Below, piece by piece: positions 6,845-38,172 of a stretch of 64,000 nt of DNA (position 1 is its first letter; each line of letters starts with the position of its first letter). A model generated the notes under the pieces. That model did not search any database and was not told the origin of the DNA. It saw only the letters and a list, made by a program, of their open reading frames with translations. The stretch comes from Bradymonadia bacterium (lineage in GTDB: Bacteria > Myxococcota_A > Bradymonadia > UBA7976 > UBA1532). Location: positions 352,001 to 416,000 of the forward strand of contig JBKAGE010000035.1 in the NCBI GenBank assembly GCA_046290225.1. Direction: 5' to 3'. The position numbers and the translations under genes were made by a program.

Positions 6845-9361
6845 ATGAGGGGGAAGCTCATGTGTCGCGGTCATCTCAAGCGTTGGGGGCGTTTTTTGCC
6901 TGCAGCGCTCTGCTTGCTTTTGCCAAGCATCGCCCTGGGTGAAGACGCACCCAAACCCATCACCCAAGAGACCATTGATGGCCTGCAAGGGAACATGAAC
7001 CATGTGTGGACGATGGTGTCCGCAGCGCTGGTGTTCCTGATGCAGTGCGGGTTCCTGTTCATCGAAGCAGGGATGGTGCGGTCGAAGAACGCCATCAACG
7101 TGGCGCAGAAGAACATCGCCGACATGTTGCTGTCGGTGGTCATGTTCTGCCTCGTGGGCTTCATGTTCATGTTCGGCAGCAGCGCCGGCGGTCTCATCGG
7201 CATCGAGGGCAAACTCTTCGCTCTCGATGGCATGGATGACTGGGGCTTTACCTTCTTCGTGTTCCAGGCAGTGTTCTGCGGAACTGCAGCGACCATCGTG
7301 TCAGGTGCTGTGGCAGAGCGCATGAAGTTCGGTGGCTACCTGGTGGTCTCGGTGGTGGTCTCGGTGCTCATTTACCCGGTCTTCGGTCACTGGGCGTGGG
7401 GCAACCTGCTCGACAGCAACAACACGGCCTGGCTGGCTGACATCGGTTTCCTCGACTTCGCAGGCTCCACGGTGGTGCACAGCGTCGGTGGCTGGGTCGC
7501 CCTTGCCATGGTCGTCATCCTCGGCCCCCGCGTCGGTCGCTTCGACGAAGAGGGCAACCCCGTGCGCATTCACGGCCACAGCTCCGTCCTCGCCACCATG
7601 GGCGCACTCATCCTCTGGATCGGCTGGATCGGCTTCAATGGTGGCTCCACGACCACCGGTGACTCCAGCTTTGCCCCCATCGTGGCCAACACCCTCATCG
7701 CCGGCGCCTTTGGCGGCTCTGTATGCATGATGATCGGCCGATACCAGGACGGTCACTATCGGCCGGACCGGTCGATCAACGGTCTGCTCGGTGGCCTCGT
7801 GGGCATCACCGCTGGCTGTAATGCAGTGTCGATTCCCTCTTCGATGGTGATCGGTACTGTGGGTGGCCTGGTGGCGTACTACGGGGCTGAGCTGCTCGAG
7901 CGCAAGTTCAAGCTCGACGACGCTGTGGGTGCTGTGCCCGTACACGGTATGGCTGGTATGTGGGGCACCATCGCCGTGGGCATCTTCGCCCCCGCTGATC
8001 AGCTCGCAGCCGGCGGTCGCTTCGAGCAGATCGCTGTTCAGGCTGGTGGGGCTCTGTTGGCCTTCGTGTGGGCTTTCGGTCTCGGGTATGTGGTGTTCAA
8101 GGCCTTCGACGTCTTCGTGGAGCGGATGCGTGTGTCCACGGAGGACGAGCTCGCTGGTCTCAACCAGATCGAGCACGGGGCGACGCTGGGTACGGGTCAC
8201 CTGCTCAAGCGCATGACCGAACTCTCTTATGGTGAAGGCGACATCAGCATGCGCTTGTCGGAGGACAGCAACGACGAGGCCGGCGAGCTGGGCTTTGCCT
8301 TCAACCGCGTCATGGACAACATCGAGCACCTCGTCCGCACCGTGGCCACTGAAGGTCAGCTGCTGAGCATCTCCGCCGAGAAGATGTCTCGGGTCTCCCA
8401 GAGCCTGTCGGAGCAATCCGAAGCGGCGGTGAGCGAAGCGAGCCGTGCGAAGGGACGGGCGTCTTCAGCGAACGAGGCTTCAGGCCAGGCTGCAGGCTCG
8501 CTGGATTCGGCGAAGCAAAGCGCCACGTCGATCGCAGAGCGTTCGGGACACCTGGCGGGTGCGGTGCATCAGGCGACGAGTGGGGTGCAGACCATCGAGC
8601 ACGAGATTCACAGCATCCAGGACACCACCGCTCAGGTCAGGCGCGTCATCGAAGAGGCCCTCGACCAGAGCACCGCTGCCAAGACCAACGTCAATCAGCT
8701 CAGCTCTGCCATCGATTCCATCTCCGGCATCCTCACCATGATCGAGCAGGTCTCCAACAAGACCCGCATGCTCGCCCTCAACGCCACCATCGAGGCCGCA
8801 CGAGCCGGTGAGGCAGGCCGAGGCTTTGCCGTGGTGGCAGAGGAGGTCAAGGAGCTCGCTGATCAGACCGCCAAGGCCGTGGACGACATCCGCGGGAAGG
8901 TTTCGGGTGTGGTCGATGAGGCGAACCATACGGTGACCATCATCGAGGCCATCACCCACACCACCGAGCAGATGGGCTCCGCTGTGGCTCAGATCGCCGA
9001 CTCCGTGGAGGCCCAGAGCCAGTCTGCATCAACCATCGTCTCGCAGATCAACCAGGCCAACGACGAGACCAACGCCGTGGCCAGCCAGATCCGCACTGTG
9101 AGCACCGATGTCGCCCAGTCTTCTGAGAAAGCACTCTCTGCGGCCCACGACACCCTCAGCGTCATGAACGACATCGAGAGTGTGGAGAACGTGGCCCGCC
9201 AGAACCTCGAGCAGGCCCAGGAGGTCATGATGACCTCACAAGAAGTTGCTGAAGTGGCTCACCGCCTCACCCAGCTCATCGCACGCCTCACCGACGTGCA
9301 GAGCGTGTATCGCGAGGCTCAGCAAGTCATCAACATGGGCGGAACAACCGCCCATTTCTGA
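6845..9361 (+). CDS. Ammonium transporter (Amt) fused to HAMP and methyl-accepting chemotaxis signalling domains
   Basis: Amt motifs [47 protein letters not shown]-like GDISMRL...[14 protein letters not shown] hairpin [33 protein letters not shown]. Confidence 0.92.
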
Positions 9362-9480: not shown

Positions 9481-9933
9481 TCAAGTGCTCTGCCGCTGCA
9501 CGCGATTGCGTATGCGCCGTGCCAGCCCGCCGATCACCGAGACAGCCACAGCATCATAGCGGCCTTGGCGCATCACCCTGCCCTGGCGGCGGAGCGTGAT
9601 CACTCGCCCCAAGATTTGGTGGGCCTCGAACCAACCATCGATGGTCGGCAACGCGTCGCCTTTGACACACACGCGTCCGCCGGGCAGGGCGCAAATCACG
9701 CGGTGGACGATGCCCAGCTCACCGACGTCGAGCAGTACGACTTCACCTAACTTCGGGGGCGCGCTCAAGGGCGCGATGGTGACCTGATCGCCATGACGCA
9801 GATAGGGGCGCATCGAGGCGCCGAGGGCGGTAAAGGTAAAAGGCTGGCCGCGACTCAACGCCTCGCGGGCCATCTCGGCAGCAGCGGTCTGGAGGGCGGG
9901 ATCATCCCGAGTGCTGACAGGTGATCGAATCAC
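9481..9933 (-). CDS. S24/S26 family (signal peptidase-like) serine peptidase, putative RiPP leader peptidase
   Basis: GASMRP (catalytic Ser), GDQV, IVHRV, KGDA, ILGRV. GTG start overlaps the radical SAM stop (GTGA at 9930-9933). Confidence 0.8.
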   Translation of the reverse strand: MIRSPVSTRDDPALQTAAAEMAREALSRGQPFTFTALGASMRPYLRHGDQVTIAPLSAPPKLGEVVLLDVGELGIVHRVICALPGGRVCVKGDALPTIDGWFEAHQILGRVITLRRQGRVMRQGRYDAVAVSVIGGLARRIRNRVQRQST

Positions 9934-11171
9934 CGGGCCCGGGGCTCGCCGATCTGCACCAGGGAGACACCATCGTCGCCTCGAGGGCGCAGGCGATGGC
10001 CCGGGCGAGCCATGCCGTGTCGCCGAGCAGCCCACTGACGCTCGGCGAAGGTGGGCCGAGATGCGAAGAGCTCACCTTCGTCGCCGGGGGCCGGCACCGG
10101 CTCGTCGGTCTCGTTGAGGCGGTCCATGTAATCCATGGCAGCCATGGTCAGATGGGTACGCTCGCAGACATAGGCGCTGCGACGATCAGCCTGCTCGGTT
10201 TCGGCGTGGGAGATGCCCGGGCAGTAACCGCACTTGCCGTGGAATCCGCAGCCCTCGCAGTCCTGCAGATAGTTCGCCCGCTTCAGCTCCCGCTGCTTCT
10301 TCACCGTGGGGTGATGCCACCAGAGCTCGGCGAAGCTGTGCTCTCGCAGACCCCCGATGGGCTCCCGCCAGTTGATGCAGGGGTAGAGCTCGCCATCAGG
10401 GGAGATGTAGCCCGCGGTGTGGGCCGCCGAGCAGGTGTTCCCCGAGCTGGGCACGTCGGGCATCTCGTGGGCGGGCCTGATCTCGTCGCGACGACTCTCC
10501 ATGCCCTTCATCACCGCGAGGATACGCTCCGGGTGAGTGAGACCGATGCCCGTGAGGGCGAAGTCGGACTGATCGTCGGGCATGATGTGGCCGTCGATGA
10601 CCCACTCACAATCGTACGTTTTGGCGATGGCCTCGACGGTGTGCCAGTCGGTCCGGTTGTGCACCATGACCGGTGTCTTGAGCTGCACCTTCACCCCACG
10701 CTCTCTGAGGCGGCGGGCGGCGTCGATGGTCTTCTGATGACTGCCGGGAATCCGCGTCACCGCCTCGTGGGCTTCGGGGCCGCCGGAATACAGCGACATG
10801 GCCACGCACGACACCCCCATGTCGGCGAGATCATCGGCGAGGGCATCGTCGATGAAGTTGCCGTGGGTGATGATCTTCACGTCGAACTGACGATCCCGGG
10901 CGGCCCGCAGCACCTTGGCGGCGTCGGGCCTCAGGAAGAGATCACCCCCGCTGAACAACAAGAACATGCACCCGGCTTCGGCGAGCTGGTCGAGCACGTC
11001 GACGCACTCGTCATAGGTCAGCTCGTGCTTGCGCCGATCAGTGAGATAGCAGTGCACGCACTTGTGATCGCAGCGCCAGGTGATGTCCCAGTGGATGCGC
11101 ACGGGGATGTTCAGGTCATAGGCCTGCTTGAAGATATCTGGCGGTACGCCTTCAGCGCCGCAGGCAGCCAT
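9930..11171 (-). CDS. Radical SAM / SPASM domain peptide maturase
   Basis: CDHKCVHC (CxxxCxxC), FSGGD, SPASM Cys pattern CSAA...ISPDGELYPC...CEGCGFHGKCGYCPG...C; AAGGAGG RBS. Confidence 0.92.
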   Translation of the reverse strand: MAACGAEGVPPDIFKQAYDLNIPVRIHWDITWRCDHKCVHCYLTDRRKHELTYDECVDVLDQLAEAGCMFLLFSGGDLFLRPDAAKVLRAARDRQFDVKIITHGNFIDDALADDLADMGVSCVAMSLYSGGPEAHEAVTRIPGSHQKTIDAARRLRERGVKVQLKTPVMVHNRTDWHTVEAIAKTYDCEWVIDGHIMPDDQSDFALTGIGLTHPERILAVMKGMESRRDEIRPAHEMPDVPSSGNTCSAAHTAGYISPDGELYPCINWREPIGGLREHSFAELWWHHPTVKKQRELKRANYLQDCEGCGFHGKCGYCPGISHAETEQADRRSAYVCERTHLTMAAMDYMDRLNETDEPVPAPGDEGELFASRPTFAERQWAARRHGMARPGHRLRPRGDDGVSLVQIGEPRAR

Positions 11172-12085
11172 GGGCCCTCCTTGGGGAACTCCAGCCGTAT
11201 GGGGTCGACCCGCGAGACGAGATCACAGGCCAGCCCAAATGCAGCCCCCCGAGTTGCGGGGGCGTTGTCGTAGACTGTCACACAGCGCAACAGCCAGGCC
11301 ACAGCCTCGTCGTCGGCGAGGGGACCGAGGGCCACCTGGGTGGCCTTCACCGGCCGGGTCATCACCGCGATGGGCGCCCCTCTGGGGTTCAAAGGCAATG
11401 TGCGCCCCTGACTCCAGAAGGGTGTACCCCAGGCGATGTAGCCCGCCCCGTCTCCCCGTGGTCTCACCGCCACGATCTCGTCGGCGAGCACGTGATCGAA
11501 GCCCGCCTCTCGAGCGATGGTGCTTTTGCCCGTGCCCGAAGGCCCGGGGTTGAGCCACGCGTGGCCATCGACCACACCTGCTGATCCGTGAATCAGGCCG
11601 CCGCCTTCTCGAAGCAGCAGCGCGCTCAACACCAGCTGGACCACCGCCCAGATCTCACCCCGACTGCCATCCATCCAGGTCACCCCGGTGGTGCCGTCGG
11701 CGCTCAGCTCGAGGCGTACATCCTCTCGCCAGTAGCAAAACTGCGTGCCGTCTATGGAGTTGGAGTCGCCAGCAGCTGTTCGAGTCTCACCAAGTGTGTG
11801 ATTTGAGCTGTTTTTCTGGCTCAGAGCTTCACCCATGGGGACCGGCCAGCACTCGACGACGCGCACCTCCACACAACAGGTCAAGGGCACACAGTGCAGG
11901 GCTCCATGAGATGAATACGCCTGTGCACCCTCTCCGACAGCTTCGGCAAGACCGTTGCCTGACTCAACAAAACAATCGAGGGCCTCGGCACCGAGGGGGG
12001 TGCCGAAGAAGATGTCCGTGAGGCCTTCACCATAGAGGGTGAGAGCGACACCGGCGATGTGGAGGGTGATGGATGTGGGGGGCAA
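11111..12085 (-). CDS. HPr kinase-related P-loop protein
   Basis: LIHGSA...GPSGTGKST...LADE...WGTPF. Likely TTG start just after the precursor stop; start uncertain. Confidence 0.75.
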   Translation of the reverse strand: MPPTSITLHIAGVALTLYGEGLTDIFFGTPLGAEALDCFVESGNGLAEAVGEGAQAYSSHGALHCVPLTCCVEVRVVECWPVPMGEALSQKNSSNHTLGETRTAAGDSNSIDGTQFCYWREDVRLELSADGTTGVTWMDGSRGEIWAVVQLVLSALLLREGGGLIHGSAGVVDGHAWLNPGPSGTGKSTIAREAGFDHVLADEIVAVRPRGDGAGYIAWGTPFWSQGRTLPLNPRGAPIAVMTRPVKATQVALGPLADDEAVAWLLRCVTVYDNAPATRGAAFGLACDLVSRVDPIRLEFPKEGPWLPAALKAYRQISSSRPMT

Positions 12086-12086
12086 C

Positions 12087-12290
12087 TCAGGACTGCAGGT
12101 TGCAGCCAAAGGGGGGCGGGCCGGGGGTGATGTTGAGGGCGCCACACGACAGGGCCGCGCGCTCGAAGACTACGCTGGTGACGAAGCCAGGCTTCTCGTA
12201 GGCCCGACGGGTCTCGGGGGTGCCGAGATCATCGTCGTGCTGGATCTCGTGATCCTGTTCGAATTCGGGCTGACGCTGCTCGTCGCTCAT
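12087..12290 (-). CDS. Putative RiPP precursor peptide (67 aa)
   Basis: GAGGAG RBS; acidic N-terminus, RRAYEKP (YxxP RRE-binding-type motif), FERAALS, then C-terminal CGALNITPGPPPFGCNLQS; embedded among PqqD, rSAM and peptidase genes. Confidence 0.8.
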   Translation of the reverse strand: MSDEQRQPEFEQDHEIQHDDDLGTPETRRAYEKPGFVTSVVFERAALSCGALNITPGPPPFGCNLQS

Positions 12291-12314
12291 GTGTTCGCTC
12301 CTCTCAGGAAGACC

Positions 12315-15300
12315 TTAGTAGAAGATCACCACCCGTAGGGTACCACCGGGCTCTTTATATACGATGCCGAAGTCTGCGTAACCGGTGGCATCGCCGTCAA
12401 AGTTCCCCAGGCCAGCGACCCCGATCTTGTGTCGGGCGGGGCTCGACAGGGTGAAGTCGACGCCGCGAGGCGTCTCCACCGCGTCGGTCCCGAACATACC
12501 GCTGCCGTCGTTGAAGTACACCCACGCGTCGAGATCGGGGTTGTCGATGTAGTTGTTGTGGCTCACCACCAGGTCCACGAAGCCGTCGGCGTTGATGTCG
12601 CCGGCGAGGTCGAAGATGGCGCCGTAGTTCTGCACACCGCGGCCGAAGCAGTCGGTGCTGTTCTGATCCTCGTCCCAGACCGACAAGCGACGTGAGACGC
12701 GATCGCCGACGACGAAGTCACCGCCGCCGTTGGCGTCACCGGTCAGATCGGCCCCACCGACGATGGAGCTGCCGAAGCTGCTCTGCGCTGCAGGACAGGG
12801 ATTGGCGAGGGCGAACGTTGTGGTCTCTGCAACGTTGTAGGCGTAGTTCTCGGGCAGATCGTTGGCGCCGTAGAAGACGTACACCCCAGTCCAGTTGGTG
12901 GGGGAGTCGCCCACGCTCACGGCGACATCGTCGAGACCGTCGTTGTTGAGATCACCCACCGTCGAGGACGAGGCGCCCATGTTCTGAGCCCCCGTTACCG
13001 AGATACGGGTGATGCCGTTGCCTGCGTCGAAGGCGGTGGCGTCAATGGTGGCGGGCCACGCTCCACGGCCAGCGATGACGAAGGCCTCGTCACCGGCCCG
13101 ACCGTCGAAGGCGCTGGAGCCGCCGATGAGGATGTCGTTGTAGGTCACCCCAGCCACCGTGTCGGCGTTGAGCTGGTTGAAGTTGCCCGCAGCGCCCACC
13201 CAGGTGATGTAGCGGCCGGGCACGGTGATCACAGAGTCCACCGTGGCCAGCTCCACAGGATCCGCCGAGCCAAAGTACACACCCACCGTACCGCCGAAGC
13301 CCACGGCGAAGTCCACACCGGTGATGGCGAAGTCGTCGAGACCGTCACCATTGATGTCGCCGAGACCAGTGGTCTGCAGGCCGTACTGGATCACGGGTAC
13401 GGCGCCCACGGTGGCGACGTCGAGCTCCACCGTGGAGATGCCCGCAGGATCAGCGGCACCGAGGACGATGGCGGTCTGGCTGAACTCGAAGGCGAAGGAG
13501 CCGTCGTACTGCACAGCACCCACCAACGCATCACCCCGACCATCGCCGTTCACGTCGCCCACGCTGGTGAGCAACGAAGCGGTGTTCAGGAAGTTGTCGT
13601 TGTCCCAGGCGACGTCGTTGCGGGGCGTCAGCTCCACAACAGCCTGGTTCAAAGTGACGTCCACCTCGATATTGGCCAGGTCACCCATACGGCCCACGTC
13701 GTCCATGGCACGCACGGCCACCTGATGCACCCCGTTGAGGGGGAGCAGGGCGTCGAGGGTGATGCTCTCCGCAGCGCCCGCATCAGCGGTGGCGGCGAAG
13801 GTGCCCAGATCAGTGGCTACATCCCAGGCGCCCTCGTCGGCGATGGCGGCAGCGGCATAGCGCACGGCGTACTGAGACACGCGGTCACCACCGGCGCCGT
13901 CATCACCAGGGGCGGTGAAGTTCAGCTGCACCGTGGGACGGCGGGGGTGAGTGACGGCTGCGGCGAGATCCCCAATGGCCGCAGGGGCCTCGGGGTCGAT
14001 GTTCACGTTCCGCGTGGTGCAGGCCTCGTTGCTGGCGGCGTCGCTCACACAGACCCGCAGCGCCACAGCGCCTGCAGGCACGGTCACACCGGCGAAGGTC
14101 ACGTTGGAGGGGTTCGCAGCGTTCACGGCCACGGGGCCCGCAGTCTGAATGCCGTTCACCTCGAGGTTGGCGGTCCGGTTGCTGCCATCGGTGGCCTCGT
14201 TCACCTGAGCCACGATGGTGATCTGCTGACCGGGGGTGCCGGCATCGTCGTCAGTGAGCACAGCGGCGCCGTCGGCGGGGCTGGTGACGCTCACCTGAGG
14301 GGCCTCGATGTCCACCAAGATGGACTGACCCAGCGACAGGGTGTCGTTGCCGTCGAGGCTGGCCCGCAGCTGCAGGATCGAATCCCCCGCAGGCAGCGCC
14401 ACGTCGGCGAAGCTCACGAAGCCGCCGTTCACAGCCACAGGGCCAGCGATGACCTGGCCATCCGCGAGCAGGTTTACGTCGGCGTTGAGGCAGTTGGGAT
14501 CAAAGAGGTCCACGGCACCCTCGACGGTGCGCACCAGGGTGTTGCCCTGCACATTGCCGTCTGCGGGGCCGAGGATGGCCGGCGCGCCGACGATGCCCTG
14601 GATCTGGCTGAAGCAGCCGTCGATCTCCACCTGTACGTTCACCGGCGTCGAGGCCCCAGGGTTACCGCAGGCGTCTTCGACGCGTGCCACGAGGTCGAGG
14701 CTGCCCGGGGGCAGGGTGAAGGTGGTGTTGATGGCGCCGTTGAGACCTGCAGGCACATCGAGCTGGGCCGGGGTGGTGGTGATCTGCTGCTCACCGTTGA
14801 ACACCCGGATGATCTGCCCCGCCTCGATGGCGTTGCGATCGGCGAAGTCGAGCGAAGCAGCCACCTGGAAGCCGTCGGCGGCGTTGCCGTTCGCGTCGTC
14901 GTCCGCGGTGAAGCTGCTCTGGTCAGCAGGGCTGGCGATGAGCGGCTCCGGCGCCTGCGTGTCGACCTCGAAGGGGATGGCGTTCACGGTGGCGGCGTTG
15001 CCACAATCATCGGCCACGGTGACCTCGACGTTGTAGACGCCATCGGCCACGGTGAAGTTCGGGAAGGTCATCAGACCACCACCGGACTGAGCGTTGATGG
15101 CGTTGCCGCCGTCGATGGTCAACGTGCCGTCGAGGGTCTCGCCAGCCTCACCACCAGGGGTCACCTGCAGCGCGTACTGGAAGGCGTCCTCTGCATCGCC
15201 ATCGGCAGCAGCGTTGAGGCAGCTGTTCGCCGCGAGGTTCACCACAGCGGGGGTGGGCACCACGGTGTTGATGCGCACCGCCTGATCGACGAGCTCGGGG

Positions 15301-18300
15301 GTGCCGAGGGCCGGCAGCAGGTTGCCGGCCTCGTCTGCGCCCGTGACGTAGAGCGTGTACTGACCGGGATCGAGCTCCACAGGAATGCTCACCGAGCCGT
15401 TGGACACCGTACCGCTGCCGAGCAGCGCCTCGGCCCCAGCCTGGCGTACGCGCACCGCACGGCCGTCTTCCATGCCGTCCACCGCCACAGTGACCGAGAA
15501 CTGGGCTCGATCCCCTGCAGAGGCGGCGTTGGTCCGCTCGCCGCGGTTCACACAGGCATCGGCGTTGGCATCTTGATCGATGGTGATGGTCTCCACCGTC
15601 GGCGCGCTGCAGTCTGCCACCACCGTGATGGGATCAGAGACCACCCGCTGACCGAAGACCCCCACCACGGTGAGGGTGTGGGTGCCGTTCCCCAGGTTGA
15701 GGGGGCACTCGAAGACCTCGGCAGAGTTGCCCTGAATCGCGCAGGCACCGTTGAGGGCCGACGACTGACCGTCGCAGGCAGCAGGACCGTCGCCCTGAGC
15801 GAAGTTGGTGCACACGTAGAATTCGGCATCAGCGCCAAGGCCACGGGTCTGACCGAGCAGGTTCAGCTGGCAACCCTCGACCTCGGGCTGAGCGTCCTCG
15901 TTCACCAGGACCGTAGAGCCGTCGCCGGGCGCGTTCACCACGATGGCAGCGCCGGGATCGACCACGAAGTCCACCGGGGTCTGGGTCTGGTTGCCACAGG
16001 TGTCGGAGACCGTAGCGGTGAAGCTGAGATCGCCGAGGGGCATGGTGTAGCGGTCGAGAGAGACCTGGCTGCACTCGCCAGCGCCCACCACCCGGGTCAG
16101 GGGCTCGTCACCCACGAGGGCATCAGGGTTGCTGGTGAAGGCGATGGTCTGACCCGCGGCGCCACAGACGTTCACGCGGGGCGTCACCTGGATACCGGCG
16201 GCATCAGGCACGTCGCGGAGGTCTTCGTCGTCGAAGTCGTTGAGGGTCTGACCAGGCGTAGGCTTGAGGAAGCCCACGAGGGGGGCCACCCGATCCACCT
16301 GAACCGCCGCCTGATCGTTCACGCTCTGGCCCGCAGCGTCGGCCACCGAAGCGACCATCGTGCAGTTGGCCTCGTCGGGCAGCGACAGGGGCTGGAAGTC
16401 GATGAAGCCCAGGTTGTCGACGGTGCCCGTCACCGAGATCGGCTCGCCACCATCACAGGTGGCCTCGAGCGTGGCCACCTGACCAGTATCGACGCGCTCG
16501 GTGATGGCGGTCACCGCGAACTGGAAGCCGGGCTCGGCGCTGGCGTCGGCTACCTGGCCGTTCACGCAGTCACCAAAGGCAGGCAGCTCGATGCTCGGGG
16601 GCACGAGGCGAATCGCCACAGTGATTTGCGGCCCTGCAGAGGTGCCGTCGTCGAGGCGGCCCTGCATGTTGAAGGTGTACTCCGACTCGGCGTCGGGCGG
16701 CACCGTCACCGTCACCGGGAACGACACGTTGCCGTCAGCGTCGACAGCGCGAGCGGGCAACACAGTCTCCTGCTCACCCTCGGTGACGATGAGCTCCACC
16801 CGAGCACCCTCGGGCAGGTTGGAGTCGATGTTGGCCGTAAGCTGGAAGCCTTCGACCTCCGGGTTCAAGTCTGCACCGAGGGCGAGGCTGCTGCCATCGG
16901 CGGGATCGACGATCTGAATACGAGGCGTACCGCACACCGCGGTCACCGTGGTCTCGACCGTCGTCTCGTTGCCCGCGCAGTCCTGAGCCCGCATCGAGAA
17001 GGTGTTCTCACCATCGAGCAAGGTCTCGCTCATGGTGGTGGCCACCCCATCGACGACGGCGGCGCAGCGCTCGGCGGCGCCGTTGAGGCGATAGCACACC
17101 TCGGCGACGTTGGGATCGACCACCGCCAACTCGAAGCCGGTCTGGATGCAGTCGGAGAGATCGCCATTGTCATCGTCACCGATGAGCAGGACCGAGCCAG
17201 GTGCCGGACTCTGCAGGCTCACCTCGGGATCAGTCGTATCCACGGTGAAGGCGATGGGCTCGACAGGATCGATGGGCACAGCGTTGCCACCGATGATGGT
17301 GCCGGCCACAGCCACCGTGTAGTCACCCTCGGGCAACACATCAGTGCCCTCGTCGACGCCGAGGCGGATCGACCAGGCCTCGTTGCCGCCGGCGATCAGA
17401 TCGAGGGTCTCGCTGTCACCGCCACCGGCAGGGGTGAAGGTGGCGGTGAAGGCCGCCTGATTCTCGGCGAGGTTCTGACCGCTGCCGCCCACGAAGACCT
17501 GCCCGTCTGCAAAGCACTGGCTCGCGTTGGGGCTGGTGACTTGGAACGAAGGCGTGTCGAGGACCACGAAGTAATCCTGAGGCACCTCCTGGGTGCCCGC
17601 AGGGTTCGGCGAAGCATCGGCGGTGGCGCGGCAACCGAGGCTGCCAGCGTCGGCGCCGCGGAAGGTGGCCACCACGTTGGCGCCGCCATCAACCAGATCA
17701 GAGCGACGGATGCGATCACCCGGCAAGGTGAAGCGGCTGCTGTAGTTCTGGTTGGGGCGACGACATTCGATGTAGATGTCGTAATCGACCTCAGCGGGCC
17801 GATCGTCCACCACGGTGATGGCCATGGGCACCTGGATGCCCTCATCCTCGGCGGCATCACCAGGGCGAGCATCATTCGCGGTCGTGAAGACCGAGCCACC
17901 TGCAGGGCTCACCAGCCGGATGTCGGGCTGAGTGGAGTCGAAGCAGACCTCGTACTCCACCGAGGTGTTGTTGCCGCAGTCGTCTGCAGCGGTGAGGGTC
18001 AGGGTGCGGCCGCACACATAACCCGCCACCTCCACAGGGATGCTGAAGGCGCCCTCGGCACCCACAGTAAAGTCACCATTGCGGAAGCTGGGCAACGCAG
18101 GCTCGAAGGCCGCGGTGATGTTGGCACCCTCAGGCAGCCCTTCCACGGTGCCTGTGAAGGTCACCCGCATACCGCCTTCGGGCAGCGCCTCACCGTCAGC
18201 GACGGCGAGCACGTTCTCTCGGAGGGGGCTGAGCTGGTCAGAGTTGATGACCGGGGCGCTGGCATCGACATTGTAGGTGATCTCGGCGGCTTCACCGGCG

Positions 18301-19343
18301 AGGCCCGACTGCGTGCTGCCCTGGGCCGAGACCGTGTTGGCCCCCTCGTTCAGGGTGATGAGGGCCGAAGCCGTGCCATCGACGACGTCGATGCCGGGCT
18401 GAGCCTCACCATTCACCATGAAGACCACCCGGCCACAGGTGCTCGAAGCCTGCACGTTCACCTGTACCCCGTCGATGTCGGGATCAGCATCGGCGGTGGC
18501 GTCGAAGTCACAGACCCCCTCAGTGGGCTCGGGGCTCAGGGTCACCGCACATGCGGTGACGTCTACGGTGACCGAGGCCTCGGCGATGACGCGCTCACCC
18601 TCCACAGTCTCTGCAGAGGCGATGAGGGCCACAGCGGTCTCGGCATCACCGGTGATCGGCAGGGCCACATTCTCAAAGGTGGCGTTGCCGTCAGCCAGCT
18701 CAGCGGTCCCTGCAGGGGCCCCGGCGATGGTCAGCTCCACCGTACCTGCAGGGAGATTCTCCGCAGCGACGGTGATGTTGGTCTGCAGACCGTTGTCGAG
18801 GGTGCCATCGAGATCGTCAGCGGCGGTGAACACCGTCTGATCTGCGGGGTTGGCGAAGGCCAGAGTCGGCGTGGGATTCGCCGGCACACATGCTGGATCC
18901 TCAGCATCAAAGCTGGTGTTTACGCTGACTGTAGCCGTGCTCACGACCGCGTCATCGCGCACGAGCTCCGCCACAAGGTTCACACCATCCTGCACCGGCA
19001 GGGGGAATCCTCCGAAGAGCACCCGGCCCGATGCGGGCACGGGCTGCGTCACCGGCTCGGCGTCGCCCTCGGAGATGCTCAACCGCAGCTGCAGGCCCTC
19101 GTTGGAGGCCCCTGAAAGGCGCACCAGCAGCGACACGTTGTATTCGATCGTGTCCTGGGTCTCGAGGTTCTGGTCGTCGGCGCAGGTGATGGCCTGACCA
19201 TTGGTCTCGGGGGTGACGAACTGCGCTTGGAGGCCGTTGCCTCCACTGCTGCTGCCCCCACCGTCATCACAGGCGCCGAGGCCCGCTGTCGCCGCCGCCA
19301 TCCATGCGAGCGGCTGCCAGTATCGTGACTGGAATCTCTTCAT
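12315..19343 (-). CDS. Giant surface lipoprotein (2342 aa): tandem Cys-containing Ig-like repeats, Fn3-like segment, C-terminal FG-GAP/integrin-like repeats
   Basis: Lipobox GLGAC-DD; repeated DxCGN/DxAGN and DxDx3-4GxQ motifs; GDVNGDGRGD, GDINGDGLDD, GDLNNDGLDD, GDINADGFVD; GGAGG RBS. Confidence 0.88.
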   Translation of the reverse strand: MKRFQSRYWQPLAWMAAATAGLGACDDGGGSSSGGNGLQAQFVTPETNGQAITCADDQNLETQDTIEYNVSLLVRLSGASNEGLQLRLSISEGDAEPVTQPVPASGRVLFGGFPLPVQDGVNLVAELVRDDAVVSTATVSVNTSFDAEDPACVPANPTPTLAFANPADQTVFTAADDLDGTLDNGLQTNITVAAENLPAGTVELTIAGAPAGTAELADGNATFENVALPITGDAETAVALIASAETVEGERVIAEASVTVDVTACAVTLSPEPTEGVCDFDATADADPDIDGVQVNVQASSTCGRVVFMVNGEAQPGIDVVDGTASALITLNEGANTVSAQGSTQSGLAGEAAEITYNVDASAPVINSDQLSPLRENVLAVADGEALPEGGMRVTFTGTVEGLPEGANITAAFEPALPSFRNGDFTVGAEGAFSIPVEVAGYVCGRTLTLTAADDCGNNTSVEYEVCFDSTQPDIRLVSPAGGSVFTTANDARPGDAAEDEGIQVPMAITVVDDRPAEVDYDIYIECRRPNQNYSSRFTLPGDRIRRSDLVDGGANVVATFRGADAGSLGCRATADASPNPAGTQEVPQDYFVVLDTPSFQVTSPNASQCFADGQVFVGGSGQNLAENQAAFTATFTPAGGGDSETLDLIAGGNEAWSIRLGVDEGTDVLPEGDYTVAVAGTIIGGNAVPIDPVEPIAFTVDTTDPEVSLQSPAPGSVLLIGDDDNGDLSDCIQTGFELAVVDPNVAEVCYRLNGAAERCAAVVDGVATTMSETLLDGENTFSMRAQDCAGNETTVETTVTAVCGTPRIQIVDPADGSSLALGADLNPEVEGFQLTANIDSNLPEGARVELIVTEGEQETVLPARAVDADGNVSFPVTVTVPPDAESEYTFNMQGRLDDGTSAGPQITVAIRLVPPSIELPAFGDCVNGQVADASAEPGFQFAVTAITERVDTGQVATLEATCDGGEPISVTGTVDNLGFIDFQPLSLPDEANCTMVASVADAAGQSVNDQAAVQVDRVAPLVGFLKPTPGQTLNDFDDEDLRDVPDAAGIQVTPRVNVCGAAGQTIAFTSNPDALVGDEPLTRVVGAGECSQVSLDRYTMPLGDLSFTATVSDTCGNQTQTPVDFVVDPGAAIVVNAPGDGSTVLVNEDAQPEVEGCQLNLLGQTRGLGADAEFYVCTNFAQGDGPAACDGQSSALNGACAIQGNSAEVFECPLNLGNGTHTLTVVGVFGQRVVSDPITVVADCSAPTVETITIDQDANADACVNRGERTNAASAGDRAQFSVTVAVDGMEDGRAVRVRQAGAEALLGSGTVSNGSVSIPVELDPGQYTLYVTGADEAGNLLPALGTPELVDQAVRINTVVPTPAVVNLAANSCLNAAADGDAEDAFQYALQVTPGGEAGETLDGTLTIDGGNAINAQSGGGLMTFPNFTVADGVYNVEVTVADDCGNAATVNAIPFEVDTQAPEPLIASPADQSSFTADDDANGNAADGFQVAASLDFADRNAIEAGQIIRVFNGEQQITTTPAQLDVPAGLNGAINTTFTLPPGSLDLVARVEDACGNPGASTPVNVQVEIDGCFSQIQGIVGAPAILGPADGNVQGNTLVRTVEGAVDLFDPNCLNADVNLLADGQVIAGPVAVNGGFVSFADVALPAGDSILQLRASLDGNDTLSLGQSILVDIEAPQVSVTSPADGAAVLTDDDAGTPGQQITIVAQVNEATDGSNRTANLEVNGIQTAGPVAVNAANPSNVTFAGVTVPAGAVALRVCVSDAASNEACTTRNVNIDPEAPAAIGDLAAAVTHPRRPTVQLNFTAPGDDGAGGDRVSQYAVRYAAAAIADEGAWDVATDLGTFAATADAGAAESITLDALLPLNGVHQVAVRAMDDVGRMGDLANIEVDVTLNQAVVELTPRNDVAWDNDNFLNTASLLTSVGDVNGDGRGDALVGAVQYDGSFAFEFSQTAIVLGAADPAGISTVELDVATVGAVPVIQYGLQTTGLGDINGDGLDDFAITGVDFAVGFGGTVGVYFGSADPVELATVDSVITVPGRYITWVGAAGNFNQLNADTVAGVTYNDILIGGSSAFDGRAGDEAFVIAGRGAWPATIDATAFDAGNGITRISVTGAQNMGASSSTVGDLNNDGLDDVAVSVGDSPTNWTGVYVFYGANDLPENYAYNVAETTTFALANPCPAAQSSFGSSIVGGADLTGDANGGGDFVVGDRVSRRLSVWDEDQNSTDCFGRGVQNYGAIFDLAGDINADGFVDLVVSHNNYIDNPDLDAWVYFNDGSGMFGTDAVETPRGVDFTLSSPARHKIGVAGLGNFDGDATGYADFGIVYKEPGGTLRVVIFY

Positions 19344-19553
19344 GGCCGAGCCCTCCGTGCTGCCCTTGCCGTTATCCGGTGGTTGTGCCGGAATGTGTGA
19401 TCGATCCGAAATTACTCAAATGCGTGGCTGTCCAGAGTGGGTCTGGTACGCCTCACCTTTACGGAGCGATGACCCATGGGCTTGACCCAGTTTGAAGATT
19501 TGCACGGTAACCCTTTTAGATAACTCAAGAACCACATTTACCCCCATCAACCT

Positions 19554-19841
19554 TCACTGAAAGTCGATGAAGCGACGTGTCTGCAGTTCTAAGAGAAAAT
19601 CTTCCACATCCTTGCGTGCAGTTTGCTGATCAATGGCAAACTCTTTCACAACCAGCTCGATGATTTCGCGCACGGTGTTCTTTTTATCTGTAATCAAATT
19701 CCAGACAAAGGTGCCGACACCATTGAGCCGATGGATCGAGTCATCGCTGGCATCGAGCAAAATCGCGCTGCCGGCCATGACTCGAGAGACCGAGGTCTTC
19801 GAAGGAATGGGAACGGCGTTGTGCTGAGGCATGGTCGTCAT
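19554..19841 (-). CDS. PqqD family / RiPP recognition element (RRE) protein
   Basis: 95 aa; ILLD...HRLNGVGTFVWNLI...TVREII..V..EFAID..TARKDVEDFL.EL. Confidence 0.85.
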   Translation of the reverse strand: MTTMPQHNAVPIPSKTSVSRVMAGSAILLDASDDSIHRLNGVGTFVWNLITDKKNTVREIIELVVKEFAIDQQTARKDVEDFLLELQTRRFIDFQ

Positions 19842-19996: not shown

Positions 19997-20989
19997 TCAG
20001 CGCCAGCGGCGGCGCCGACGCATCAGGGGGAAGGACAAGAAGACACAGGCCCAGGGGATCCACCGCACGGCCCGCTTGATCCACGGGGAGCGCTTCTTGC
20101 GTCGGCCGGTGGCCGCTTCGGCCTCGGGCACGCACCCGCCGCTGCTGTCGTCATCCCAGCTGTCGTCGTCATCTTCCCAATCATCGCCCTCACAGCCGGC
20201 GCTGTCGTCTGATCCGCTGTCGCTCCAGCTGTCGTCGTCATCTTCCCAGTCGTCGCTGTCGCACCCACCGCCGCTGTCATCGTCGCCCCAGTCGTAGCTG
20301 CCACTGTCCATGGCATCACTGTCGTCATCGTCGTCGTCCCAGCCGTCGTCATCGTCCCAGTCGCTGCTGTCACACCCACCGCTGTCTTCACTCGGAGGCG
20401 GCTCGTACTCGTCTATCCACTCGTCGCTGTCGTCATCGTCATCCCAGTCGCTGCCATCGCAGCCGCCGCTGTCGTCGACCGCCACCACGACTCGACCACC
20501 TGATCGATCCTCAGAGGGTGGGGCGGGTCCTCGCTCCAAGCGCGCAGGTGGATGCAAGAGTCCAGTGAGGTTGATGAACTGCCAGCTGGTCCCGTTGAAG
20601 ATCTCCAGGCTGAGTTCGATGGTGGCGGGGGTGTACTTGTGAAACAGGGTGAGGCTGCTGCCCTGAGCCATCTGAGGATCTTCGAAGGCCCCATCACCGC
20701 TCTCGCGGAAGTCCACCTGAGAGGGCTCAAGCTCCACGGTGCCCTGCTCGAGACGCTCTGCAGGTACGGTCAGGGTGATGTTCACGTCGATATCAGGCTC
20801 TCTCTGATATCTGACGCTCACTGTTCGCAATGTGCCGTATGTATGTGTCTTGACGAAGGCCTGGCTGTGGCCATCTCGACGATGACCTTCGATCTCGGTG
20901 GCCCACACCACATCTGCCGAGCCATCACCGGTCCATGCGACACAAAACGGCAAACAGAGCAGCAGAAGCAAGGTGTGAGCGCGGTGCAT
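19997..20989 (-). CDS. Secreted or membrane-anchored protein with Asp/Trp-rich (S)GGC repeats and a C-terminal hydrophobic segment plus poly-Arg tail
   Basis: GGAGG RBS before MHRAHTLLLLL; five G(G/A)C-type motifs among D-rich tracts; ends WIPWACVFLSFPLMRRRRRWR. Confidence 0.7.
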   Translation of the reverse strand: MHRAHTLLLLLCLPFCVAWTGDGSADVVWATEIEGHRRDGHSQAFVKTHTYGTLRTVSVRYQREPDIDVNITLTVPAERLEQGTVELEPSQVDFRESGDGAFEDPQMAQGSSLTLFHKYTPATIELSLEIFNGTSWQFINLTGLLHPPARLERGPAPPSEDRSGGRVVVAVDDSGGCDGSDWDDDDDSDEWIDEYEPPPSEDSGGCDSSDWDDDDGWDDDDDDSDAMDSGSYDWGDDDSGGGCDSDDWEDDDDSWSDSGSDDSAGCEGDDWEDDDDSWDDDSSGGCVPEAEAATGRRKKRSPWIKRAVRWIPWACVFLSFPLMRRRRRWR

Positions 20990-21062
20990 GTGGGCCTCCG
21001 ATGAATGTGGGCAACATCGGCGCGTCAGAGCGAAGTTGCCGTGGTGTTGCATCGGAGCATCT

Positions 21063-36555: not shown

Positions 36556-37353
36556 TCAGCCAAAGGCGGCCCGGCGACGGTAGTCTTCGCCGTTCATCGG
36601 CTGCAGATGACACATCTCGATCAGCCGGGAGTAGATGCGCTCCCCGACGCGATCGACGAGGACCTGCTGGCCATCTGCGCCGCCGTTCCCACGGCCTGGC
36701 GCATAGTTCGTCGTGAACAATGTGGTGCGGTTGGCGTTGTACCGCTTGCTGATCAGCTCGTCCAGCACCGAGAGCTCCCACTCGGTGCCCCGCCCCTTGC
36801 CCAGCTCGTCGATGGCCAGCACCGGAATGTGAATCAAGGGTTCGATGAGGGCTTCAGCGCTGCCATGACGGCCCTGATCAAATGAGGCGCGCAGATCGGA
36901 CAGCAGGTGCATGAACTCCACGAACCGCACCTGCACCCCACGTTTGATCAGCAGGTGGCGCAAGATCGCCACCATCAAGTGGGTCTTCCCGGTCCCACAG
37001 GGTCCGTAATAAAGAATGCCACGCTGCCCCGCGACGAACTCCGAGGCAAACCGATTCGCCAGCGCCCGGGCGTTGCGCTTTTGCAGATCAGGCGTCTCGA
37101 AGTTCATGAACGAGGCCTGGTTGTACCGCGCGGGCAACCGGGCGTGGTTGTAGAACTTGATGCGTTGATCGAGGGGGCTGCACTCGCAGGGCACCGCGTT
37201 CGTGTAGCCCTGATCATTGGTGACGAAGGTGAAGCCCACGCCCCCGCAGAGGGTACACTTCACCTTGCAGGTGCACCGCTCGGCGAGGGAATAGTCGCCC
37301 TGGCGTTTGGAGACGATGAACTCATTGCCGCAAATCGGGCACTCGCGCTGCAT
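36556..37353 (-). CDS. DnaC/DnaI/IstB-like AAA+ ATPase with N-terminal Cys-rich Zn-binding region
   Basis: GPCGTGKTH, LAIDELG, RYN...TLFTTN, RIYSRL; CxxC...CxC..CxxC...CxC. Confidence 0.85.
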   Translation of the reverse strand: MQRECPICGNEFIVSKRQGDYSLAERCTCKVKCTLCGGVGFTFVTNDQGYTNAVPCECSPLDQRIKFYNHARLPARYNQASFMNFETPDLQKRNARALANRFASEFVAGQRGILYYGPCGTGKTHLMVAILRHLLIKRGVQVRFVEFMHLLSDLRASFDQGRHGSAEALIEPLIHIPVLAIDELGKGRGTEWELSVLDELISKRYNANRTTLFTTNYAPGRGNGGADGQQVLVDRVGERIYSRLIEMCHLQPMNGEDYRRRAAFG

Positions 37354-37404
37354 GGCTGAACTCTCTGAAAACGGAACCGGCGTAGAGCCTTTGTGAGGGT
37401 GTCC

Positions 37405-38172
37405 TCACCACGAAGGGGGCGCAAGCCTCAACTGCAGATCGGGCAAACCCAGATGACGACGCACCTGCCGCAGACGTTGTCGATCACGGGTGGCCTGCCA
37501 ATTGGTCTGGTTCGCCACCTTGCGCTCCGCGGCGAGCATATCATCGACCTTCGCCGACAACATCTCCTGGGTGTCCGCGTCGAGGCGATCCCAGAAGGCC
37601 TCGCTGGCCTTCTCTTCTAGAGATTCCAGAGCGGTGACCGGGTCTTCAATTTTTCCGATCAAGGCATCATCTCTGAGCTGAGTCAGGCGACCGAGCAGCA
37701 GATCGACGAGGGCGATCAACCGATCTTCGTGCAGATCGGCTCTGGCACGCTCGACCTGGCTGAGCAACAAGTCGAAGGCCCGGGTCAGCTCGGCCTGCTC
37801 TGCAGCGAGGGGCTGGTGCGGTGCGATCTCCGGTCTGGGTCGAGGATCACGTGCGGGGGGTGTCAGCGGCGTCGACGGGGGCACGACAGGGGTGCCCGCT
37901 TGAGGGGTCGGGCGGCTACCCACCTGCCGGGCACGCCACGCCTGAGCGACGGCGTCCACTGACTTGAGCACCGACTCGAGGCCTCTGATCGATTTGGTCT
38001 TCTTGCGATGATCGAAGGCCCGCTCGATGCCTTGGATCACCACCTCGGCGGGCAACCCCGCCCGAGCCCAACGTTGGATCATTTCGAGATCTCGAGCGGA
38101 GAGCATCAGCCCCTTGCCGCTCTGTTCGAGGAAGGCACGCTCAATGGCGTGAATGTAGGCGCGGTCGAGCAT
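37405..38172 (-). CDS. Hypothetical protein with DnaD-like N-terminal domain
   Basis: FLEQSGKGLMLSARDLEMIQRW...GLPAEVVIQGIERAF...IRGL resembles DnaD/DnaB-type helical domains; directly upstream of the DnaC-like ATPase. Confidence 0.55.
   Translation of the reverse strand: MLDRAYIHAIERAFLEQSGKGLMLSARDLEMIQRWARAGLPAEVVIQGIERAFDHRKKTKSIRGLESVLKSVDAVAQAWRARQVGSRPTPQAGTPVVPPSTPLTPPARDPRPRPEIAPHQPLAAEQAELTRAFDLLLSQVERARADLHEDRLIALVDLLLGRLTQLRDDALIGKIEDPVTALESLEEKASEAFWDRLDADTQEMLSAKVDDMLAAERKVANQTNWQATRDRQRLRQVRRHLGLPDLQLRLAPPSW

Follow-up and report, generated by a model that had tools for sequence, protein, structure and literature searches.

The cassette and its organization

The stretch of DNA analysed here (the window: 64,000 nucleotides of contig JBKAGE010000035.1, from a Bradymonadia bacterium) carries a six-gene cassette that probably directs the formation of a peptide made by the ribosome and modified after translation (RiPP). 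The genes encode a PqqD-type RiPP recognition element (RRE), a giant lipoprotein, a small precursor peptide, an HprK-like kinase, a radical S-adenosylmethionine (rSAM) enzyme with a SPASM domain, and a peptidase (Table 1), and all six are co-oriented on the minus strand, as the first-pass annotation of this DNA had claimed. The junctions which that annotation described agree with the coordinates. The TTG start of the kinase gene lies 1 base past the precursor stop, the homologues beginning at the equivalent place; the ATG of the rSAM gene and its AAGGAGG site fall within the final 61 nt of the kinase gene; and the in-frame GTG of the peptidase gene overlaps the rSAM stop as GTGA. Tight coupling extends to the lipoprotein gene, whose stop lies 24 nt away from the ATG of the precursor; a GAGGAG site sits in the interval. 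The gene order of the cassette recurs in relatives.

Table 1. Features of the cassette, with positions in the window
Feature	Position	Strand	Remarks
PqqD-type RRE gene	19554-19841	minus	95 aa, stand-alone; PF05402 E 8e-17
Intergenic gap, pqqD/lipoprotein gene	19344-19553	minus	210 nt; sole sizeable gap in cassette
Giant surface lipoprotein gene	12315-19343	minus	2342 aa; lipobox Cys25; Pfam Big_13 + FG-GAP
Integrin-alpha-like beta-propeller head of lipoprotein	12318-13550	minus	~residues 1932-2342; predicted by AlphaFold2 + Foldseek
Precursor peptide gene	12087-12290	minus	67 aa; YEKP at 31-34; purifying selection
HprK/PEPCK-fold peptide kinase gene (putative)	11111-12085	minus	324 aa, TTG start; conserved residues
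Radical SAM/SPASM maturase gene	9930-11171	minus	413 aa; PF04055 + PF13186
SEC11/SipW-type (S26B) leader peptidase gene (putative)	9481-9933	minus	150 aa; Ser40-His77-Asp99 (plus Asp93)

Scans for sigma-70 promoters and terminators gave no match in the gap between the pqqD and lipoprotein genes, and none above chance. The GC content of pqqD is 50% and that of the adjoining gap 53%, compared to 62% for the window (19344-19841). Pfam scans covered 45 larger ORFs of the window (13 + 32), a subset of all its ORFs, and among these no lasso cyclase, lanthipeptide enzyme, YcaO protein or ABC exporter was found, so that the absence of these functions noted at first pass holds for the ORFs scanned. None of the cassette proteins reaches a naming cut-off in NCBIfam.

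Occurrence and inheritance

The co-occurrence of the genes was assessed in 61 genomes, namely that of the window and 60 relatives. The rSAM gene was present in 37 of these, including 26 of the 27 members of the window's own family, 3/3 of the sister family f2, 5/10 of f3 and 2/2 of f5, and in none of the 18 members of three other families. The kinase and precursor profiles matched the same 37 genomes and the peptidase profile 36, so that a small ORF accompanied the homologous rSAM gene in 37/37 rSAM-bearing genomes, and a check set beforehand to refute the first-pass proposal did not refute it. Two observations moderate these counts and weigh against the reading of the cassette as one pathway: the kinase, peptidase, precursor and propeller profiles were built on these genomes, which makes most positives positive by construction and leaves as independent evidence the 24 blank genomes and the displaced copies, and one genome that is 99% complete (G008) has no clear peptidase orthologue.

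Each carrier genome contains one copy of the cassette, save one genome with two. At locus L063 (G045:C291) two facing cassettes with different precursors were observed on one contig, one of their kinases carrying Asp-Glu and the other Asn-Glu. All three f2 genomes have retained every part of an operon that is now dispersed to 3-4 places, the pieces being the rSAM gene alone, the precursor with the kinase gene, pqqD with the lipoprotein gene, and the peptidase gene. A draw of 301 genomes from the phylum, in which six candidates were scored per genome, gave 26 matches, including 14/14 members of the family and 0/27 of family f6. In the rSAM tree most genera with at least two rows form clades and f2 nests within f1, and housekeeping neighbour genes recur around the cassette loci. 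Near-universal in its family, single-copy, retained when split and with a tree that mostly follows the genera, the locus behaves as core loci passed on vertically do; the six genes make up a genuine pathway, inherited and present in one copy, in uncultured myxobacteria.

A wider genome scan yielded 80 confirmed loci out of 480, of which 63 were mostly from Acidobacteriota; 13 scan loci (L071-L083), belonging to a clade already sampled, were left out of the counts. The 63 loci of acidobacterial type contain the kinase and PqqD genes in 63/63 cases, the peptidase in 56/63 and a homologous precursor in 55/63.

RiPP clusters are usually patchy and linked to conflict, and antimicrobial activity is common among rSAM RiPPs. 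The product was also considered as an antimicrobial or conflict RiPP that is exported, the lipoprotein being a co-regulated passenger; in favour of this, the lipoprotein has disappeared in two lineages that retain the peptide genes, and the clusters of the linear polyphosphorylated peptides (LPPs) and of paeninodin are patchy in the manner of conflict genes (PMC13381572). The distribution found here is the opposite, with one copy in 26/27 and 14/14 family members and a tree that largely tracks the genera; moreover, the core is under strong purifying selection and no exporter or immunity gene is linked among the recurring neighbour clusters, which makes an antimicrobial role improbable. The behaviour of the cassette as a core gene set in an uncultured myxobacterial family points instead to a physiological RiPP role.

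The precursor peptide

The precursor belongs to no Pfam or NCBIfam family, and its nearest clusters in the ESM Atlas (best 0.90) are unnamed and mostly from Acidobacteriota. Its landmarks are the RRE motif, the junction FER-AALS-C at residues 42-49, Cys49, Cys63 and the C-terminal Ser67. The comparison of homologous genes gave pN far below pS in 10/10 pairs (pS 0.11-0.94, pN 0-0.115), the pairs sharing genomes and thus being non-independent; the precursor is a gene under purifying selection.

The leader pattern matches only once in the six-frame proteome of the window's genome, in the precursor itself, and a search for the leader motif in the lipoprotein found none. This bears on the idea that the enzymes act on the giant lipoprotein or another protein, the small ORF being a regulator or decoy, to which the retention of pqqD beside the lipoprotein gene in the split f2 operons lends some colour. 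Since in the same split genomes the kinase gene remains with the precursor, and eight genomes retain the enzymes without the lipoprotein, this idea appears very improbable.

For the analysis of conserved positions a set of 82 distinct precursors was used, 29 of Bradymonadia type and 53 acidobacterial; two loci whose precursors repeated others already included had been omitted, as had L090, a spurious hit to the pattern. The leader contains [YW]xxP; counted from the first residue of this motif, position 12 is F or Y in 81/82 (F in 78/82), position 16 is A or S and position 17 L or I in 82/82, and a Cys occupies position 19 in 79/82 and stands one residue downstream in the remaining three. With respect to this first Cys the residue at -3 is small (A/S) in 82/82 and that at -1 is small in 79/82, which is the signal-peptidase pattern. 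All 82 cores contain at least two cysteines, the intervening residues being variable and offering no common aromatic or acidic acceptor. A C-terminal Ser is present in 53/53 acidobacterial and 21/29 Bradymonadia-type precursors, whereas none of the internal Ser residues close to the junction is invariant. A further precursor-like ORF with a Gly/Tyr-rich tail was observed at L084:6692-6940 (+), between a giant FG-GAP protein and a kinase.

The putative modifying enzymes

The rSAM protein contains the cysteines C34/C38/C41 and, in its SPASM region, Cys 247, 265, 305, 308, 314, 317 and 336; the CxxxCxxC motif and the seven SPASM cysteines are invariant in 31/31 aligned rows. The enzymes of named relatives are 55-61% identical. 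The nearest solved structures are PqqE (6c8v) and then SkfB (6efn), and the protein remains below every NCBIfam cut-off shown (StsB 84.5/625, AlbA 53.3/850, GeoRSP rSAM 85.1/400 bits). The CxxxCxxC motif is followed by Tyr, as in SkfB and StsB, PqqE having Ser at this place. In a partial comparison of active-site positions, 1, 2 and 4 (Tyr/Ser/Ser) resemble those of SkfB and StsB, whereas 5-6 (Ile-Asn) do not.

The kinase contains His166, the P-loop GPSGTGKST at 181-189 and the acid pair Asp202-Glu203, and the His, P-loop and acid pair are conserved among its homologues. Its profile weakly matches the PEPCK/HprK fold, the PDB match being PEPCK. The kinases paired with precursors that end in Ser or Ser-Gly carry Asp-Glu, while five kinases of f3 have Asn-Glu and all five accompany precursors without a terminal Ser; these five form one clade and were counted as a single event. 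Relative to most homologues, the kinase encoded in the window carries two extra segments of ~22-24 residues in its N-terminal part, and the stretch concerned (window 11700-12000, minus) shows a lower GC3 of 0.64.

The Ser, the His and both Asp residues of the peptidase are invariant in 28/28 homologues, and hydropathy analysis revealed no N-terminal membrane anchor. The best PDB matches of its profile are SEC11C/SEC11A, the Pfam S24/S26 match being weak, and its motifs agree, when compared by eye, with S29/H68/D93 of LppS. The genome of the window contains three more S24/S26-like ORFs (C42:84602-84922, C78:509529-509834 and C15:7623-8681), which are weaker matches to the peptidase profile and have no cassette neighbours as far as checked. 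For the RRE the best PDB matches of the profile are lasso-type RREs (TbiB1 5v1u, 9x8z, 9x90 and TfuB1 6jx3). Judged by their intact active-site residues, the kinase, the rSAM enzyme and the peptidase look functional.

Proposed pathway and product

We consider it probable, with some reserve, that the cassette is a five-gene RiPP pathway, co-transcribed with the lipoprotein gene, vertically inherited and housekeeping-like, in which the peptide would pass through four steps. PqqD would bind the YEKP leader, given its homology to the RREs of the LPP and lasso systems. The HprK-like kinase, in view of the conservation described above, would phosphorylate the C-terminal Ser67 in the manner of the paeninodin-type kinases. 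The rSAM enzyme might then join Cys49 and/or Cys63 to backbone carbons in sactionine-type thioethers, which is the least certain step. Finally the peptidase, helped by PqqD, would remove the leader, as suggested by its homology to LppS. The favoured cut, after A46-L47-S48, would give a 19-residue core starting with Cys49, and the alternative, after F42-E43-R44, a core of 23 residues. Calculated monoisotopic masses are 7456.49 Da for the full precursor and 1884.89, 2085.00 and 2227.08 Da for unmodified cores beginning after Ser48, Ala46 and Arg44, respectively; a 19-mer carrying one phosphate (+79.97) and one cross-link (-2.02) would have 1962.84 Da. The product is thus likely a C-terminally phosphorylated, probably thioether-bridged peptide of 19-23 residues, its cut site and radical chemistry being deduced from sequence comparison.

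A cut before Cys49 is favoured by the near-invariant small residues at -3 and -1 and by the fact that the register of the LPP system would place Arg or Lys at P1 in 29/29 Bradymonadia-type precursors. What speaks for the thioether is that the cysteines are fixed while the residues between them vary, and that Tyr follows the motif, as in SkfB and StsB.

Several observations speak against parts of this scheme. Over its full length the rSAM enzyme resembles AhbD, NirJ, MftC and PqqE, none of which is a thioether synthase, and this overall likeness disfavours the thioether. Thr stands at the place that matches LPP (position 14) in 53/53 acidobacterial precursors, which leaves the LPP register some probability. 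In the LPP pathway the cut falls after F-E-T and the phosphate is carried by core Ser3, not by the C-terminus (PMC13381572). The terminal Ser is absent from 8/29 Bradymonadia-type precursors and from 3/5 of the distant Myxococcota ones, one intact Asp-Glu kinase stands beside a precursor without it, and the distant ORF of L084 lacks the junction Cys. No exporter was detected in the scanned ORFs of the window or among the neighbour clusters occurring in at least 4 of the 61 loci, an unlinked exporter not having been sought.

Identical genes could also perform another chemistry, with cleavage following F42-E43-R44, in the register of LPP, an ordinary disulfide between the cysteines, and an rSAM enzyme that forms no thioether but possibly catalyses an oxidative decarboxylation of the phosphorylated C-terminus like MftC or AhbD, an epimerization or a C-C link, possibly leading to a cofactor-like product as in the case of PQQ and mycofactocin. 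The pathways of PQQ and mycofactocin are single-copy and vertically inherited, and the inheritance of the cassette recalls them; the highest full-length family scores are those of AhbD, NirJ2 and MftC; and F at position 12 in 78/82 precursors, together with the acidobacterial Thr at 14, echoes the FET of LPP. However, Arg or Lys at P1, which this register imposes on every Bradymonadia-type precursor, is unfavourable for the signal-peptidase fold, the A/S-L-small-C box is more conserved, and the core varies in length and sequence far beyond cofactor precursors. StsB, furthermore, is a sactisynthase concealed by an MftC-like overall similarity, according to its description (PMC10288494). On balance this other chemistry is rather unlikely, although it deserves attention, and the scheme with a cut before Cys49 and thioether formation is retained here.

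The giant lipoprotein and other secreted proteins encoded beside the precursor

The lipoprotein begins with a Sec/SPII lipobox around Cys25, continues with Ig-like repeats and ends in an FG-GAP propeller, and most of its complete homologues begin with lipobox-type N-termini. For its final 470 aa AlphaFold2 gave a model with a pLDDT of 89.8 and a pTM of 0.90; every match that Foldseek listed for the propeller was an integrin alpha chain (TM 0.57; best E 1.5e-11). The propeller head was found in 29/61 genomes, all 29 of which bear the cassette. In 24/29 the lipoprotein gene immediately precedes the precursor gene; contig ends hide the arrangement in two, and the other three are the split f2 genomes. 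In the distant Myxococcota loci (5/5) the gene just before the precursor encodes a large protein that matches the head more weakly, and one of these loci has another gene order. The first-pass annotation had listed the lipoprotein as a member of the cassette and left its role unexplained; the membership stands, for the lipoprotein belongs to the system as a conserved part of the locus.

Acidobacterial loci have a secreted partner gene at most 450 nt from the precursor in 46/55 cases. The partner is a secreted protein of 670-720 aa without a Pfam family, and a profile comparison with the FG-GAP head found no homology (probability 0.3%). Modelling gave low confidence (pLDDT 61.9) and weak fold matches (E ~1e-5), most of them to propeller proteins; the partner probably adopts a propeller fold. 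A second type of acidobacterial partner gives DNRLRE/PQQ-like propeller matches in Pfam.

Most likely the product would serve the cell's own envelope or adhesion, together with the lipoprotein, rather than warfare. It is tempting to speculate that the integrin-alpha-like propeller at the tip of the lipoprotein binds the mature phospho-peptide as its dedicated ligand or carries it as a small subunit, so that a RiPP would activate a surface adhesin, and we offer this as a tentative possibility. The phyla would in that case have recruited unrelated secreted propellers, FG-GAP in Myxococcota and the 670-720-aa or DNRLRE/PQQ-like proteins in Acidobacteriota. The suggestion derives from the restriction of the lipoprotein to cassette genomes, from its position next to the precursor in the 24/29 and 5/5 loci, and from the 46/55 acidobacterial partners. 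Counting against it are two lineages in which the lipoprotein is gone and the peptide still conserved, the three split genomes and the missing exporter. The eight cassette genomes without the lipoprotein represent one clade of six and a second lineage of two; a deeper search of seven of them gave no match at 1e-12, and their precursors are still conserved, which argues against a strict partnership. The physical partnership therefore remains conjectural. If true, the link to a surface adhesin would provide the first concrete function for phosphorylated RiPPs and a bacterial parallel to the peptide-binding heads of integrins.

A complex prediction with the propeller (residues 60-470 of alignment A6) and the unmodified precursor, run without controls, gave a score of 0.00 and weighs neither way. 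The idea of an unpaired Cys in the lipoprotein available for a mixed disulfide was dropped as unsupported, the protein having 38 Cys besides the lipidated one. A second lipoprotein of the same genome (C40:31916-33859, corresponding to L157:9917-11860, +) has 647 aa, consists nearly entirely of an FG-GAP head (E 1e-125 to profile A6) and lies distant from the cassette; it is a possible second client of the peptide.

Other genes of the window

Convergent with the cassette, at 6845-9361 (+), lies a gene whose 838-aa product joins an ammonium transporter to HAMP and methyl-accepting chemotaxis domains; Amt-sensor fusions are already known. On the other side (19997-21052, minus) a secreted-looking protein of 351 aa contains GCDxxDWDDDDD repeats, rich in Asp, and at its C-terminus a hydrophobic stretch with an Arg cluster behind it, resembling a sorting signal; it has no Pfam or NCBIfam match and was not seen adjoining related cassettes. 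A gene pair encoding a DnaB_2-like protein and an IstB/DnaC-like ATPase is located at 36556-38172 (minus), between the gyrB and ATP synthase genes. As the window carries dnaA, dnaN, recF and yidC, the cassette lies ~25-35 kb from the probable replication origin.

Comparison with known systems

The first-pass annotation had offered SynChlorMet as a similar gene set. Both SynChlorMet (ScmC/D/E/F) and GeoRSP combine an HprK-like protein, PqqD and rSAM/SPASM proteins, but the cassette has one rSAM enzyme, not two. Identity with SynChlorMet was rejected, the four models scoring far below their cut-offs (ScmC, TIGR04249, 17.6/125, ScmD 28.7/100, ScmE 75.6/400 and ScmF 54.2/400 bits), and the GeoRSP rSAM model stays below its cut-off with the score given above; SynChlorMet is thus not the closest system, and its name was not found in the open-licence literature.

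The closest characterized system is the LPP pathway of Bacillota, represented by LppA/K/B/S/D/N of Paenibacillus alginolyticus (PMC13381572). There a Ser-His-Asp peptidase was shown to cleave in an RRE-dependent manner and an HprK-like kinase to phosphorylate; the leader consensus is YxxPxVLxHQxIxFET followed by xxS, the product is linear, and the roles of the LPPs and paeninodins are given as unknown (PMC13381572). This provides an experimental precedent for three of the four enzymes behind the peptide proposed at first pass, RRE-guided, cross-linked, possibly phosphorylated and freed by a signal-peptidase-like protease, a proposal that the present results support, the cross-link being its putative element. 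The cassette shares with LPP, as described in that source, the YxxP leader, a separate RRE, a kinase resembling HprK, the lack of a lasso cyclase and a soluble archaeal/SipW-type peptidase with a Ser-His-Asp triad; position 19 from the leader Tyr, which in LppA is the phosphorylated Ser, is the invariant Cys of the cassette. The differences are an additional rSAM/SPASM enzyme and two conserved Cys, a consensus YxKPxFxxSxxFERxAL[SA]C with the Cys at 19 and the conserved Ser at the C-terminus, and the lack of a linked NTP transferase (PF14907) and, in the scanned window ORFs and the neighbour clusters mentioned above, of a linked MsbA-like exporter. Moreover, the cassette is vertically inherited, near-universal within its family and linked to a giant lipoprotein, whereas the LPP genes are patchy and linked to capsule loci. 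The lack of a linked PF14907 gene and exporter, the different junction and the presence of the rSAM enzyme show that the cassette is not an LPP system. The main text of the LPP paper does not mention radical SAM, Myxococcota, Acidobacteria, propeller or lipoprotein, and the supplement places RRE-linked peptidases of Myxococcota/Acidobacteria in other network clusters, without a precursor (PMC13381572).

PF14907 was considered as a missing member of the cassette and rejected, since its distribution does not follow the cassette: it occurs in 54/61 members of the class, including 8/8 and 9/9 in cassette-free families, and in 0/3 of the cassette-bearing f2. The window's genome has a single PF14907 gene, which belongs to a locus for polysaccharide export on a different contig (L158:5098-13760, contig C46), where inspection showed Wzc-like, sugar dehydrogenase, epimerase and Wza-like genes. 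In the acidobacterial loci PF14907 is linked in 35/63.

The phosphorylated lasso peptides (paeninodin PadeK, ThcoK, SyanK and pseudomycoidin PsmK/PsmN) have an HprK-like kinase with a His-Lys-acid-acid motif and a C-terminal Ser as the target, and PadeK, ThcoK and PsmK are the precedent for phosphorylation of a terminal Ser (PMC9266682). The YxxP leader and the lasso-type RRE are common to them and the cassette. The cassette differs in having no macrolactam cyclase or B2 cysteine peptidase, in the Glu as second acid of its kinase and in the rSAM enzyme. It thus falls outside the LPP, lasso and SynChlorMet groups, in agreement with the earlier view that it fits no standard class.

Sacti- and ranthipeptide systems (SkfB, AlbA, StsB; CteB, QhpD) likewise combine a SPASM rSAM enzyme, an RRE and a Cys-containing core, and SkfB is the second-best PDB match of the cassette enzyme, but a kinase and an S26 peptidase are foreign to them. 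For the ligand reading the qhp operon serves as a working analogy, with no sequence relationship claimed: a small peptide, cross-linked by an rSAM enzyme and trimmed of its leader, is encoded among the extracytoplasmic proteins that it joins, although QhpC needs a dedicated ABC exporter (QhpF) as well as a subtilisin and a monooxygenase, and the cassette has none of these (PMC7876137). A description of the cassette was not found in the open-licence literature, subscription papers being outside the search.

Within the LPP-type machinery the cassette forms a radical-SAM branch, which is core-like in the host family and has a genetic tie to a giant integrin-like lipoprotein. Its defined 67-residue substrate makes the pathway testable by simple co-expression. 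The logic of peptidase, kinase and RRE that was shown for the LPPs in 2026 now reaches a radical-SAM branch in two phyla.

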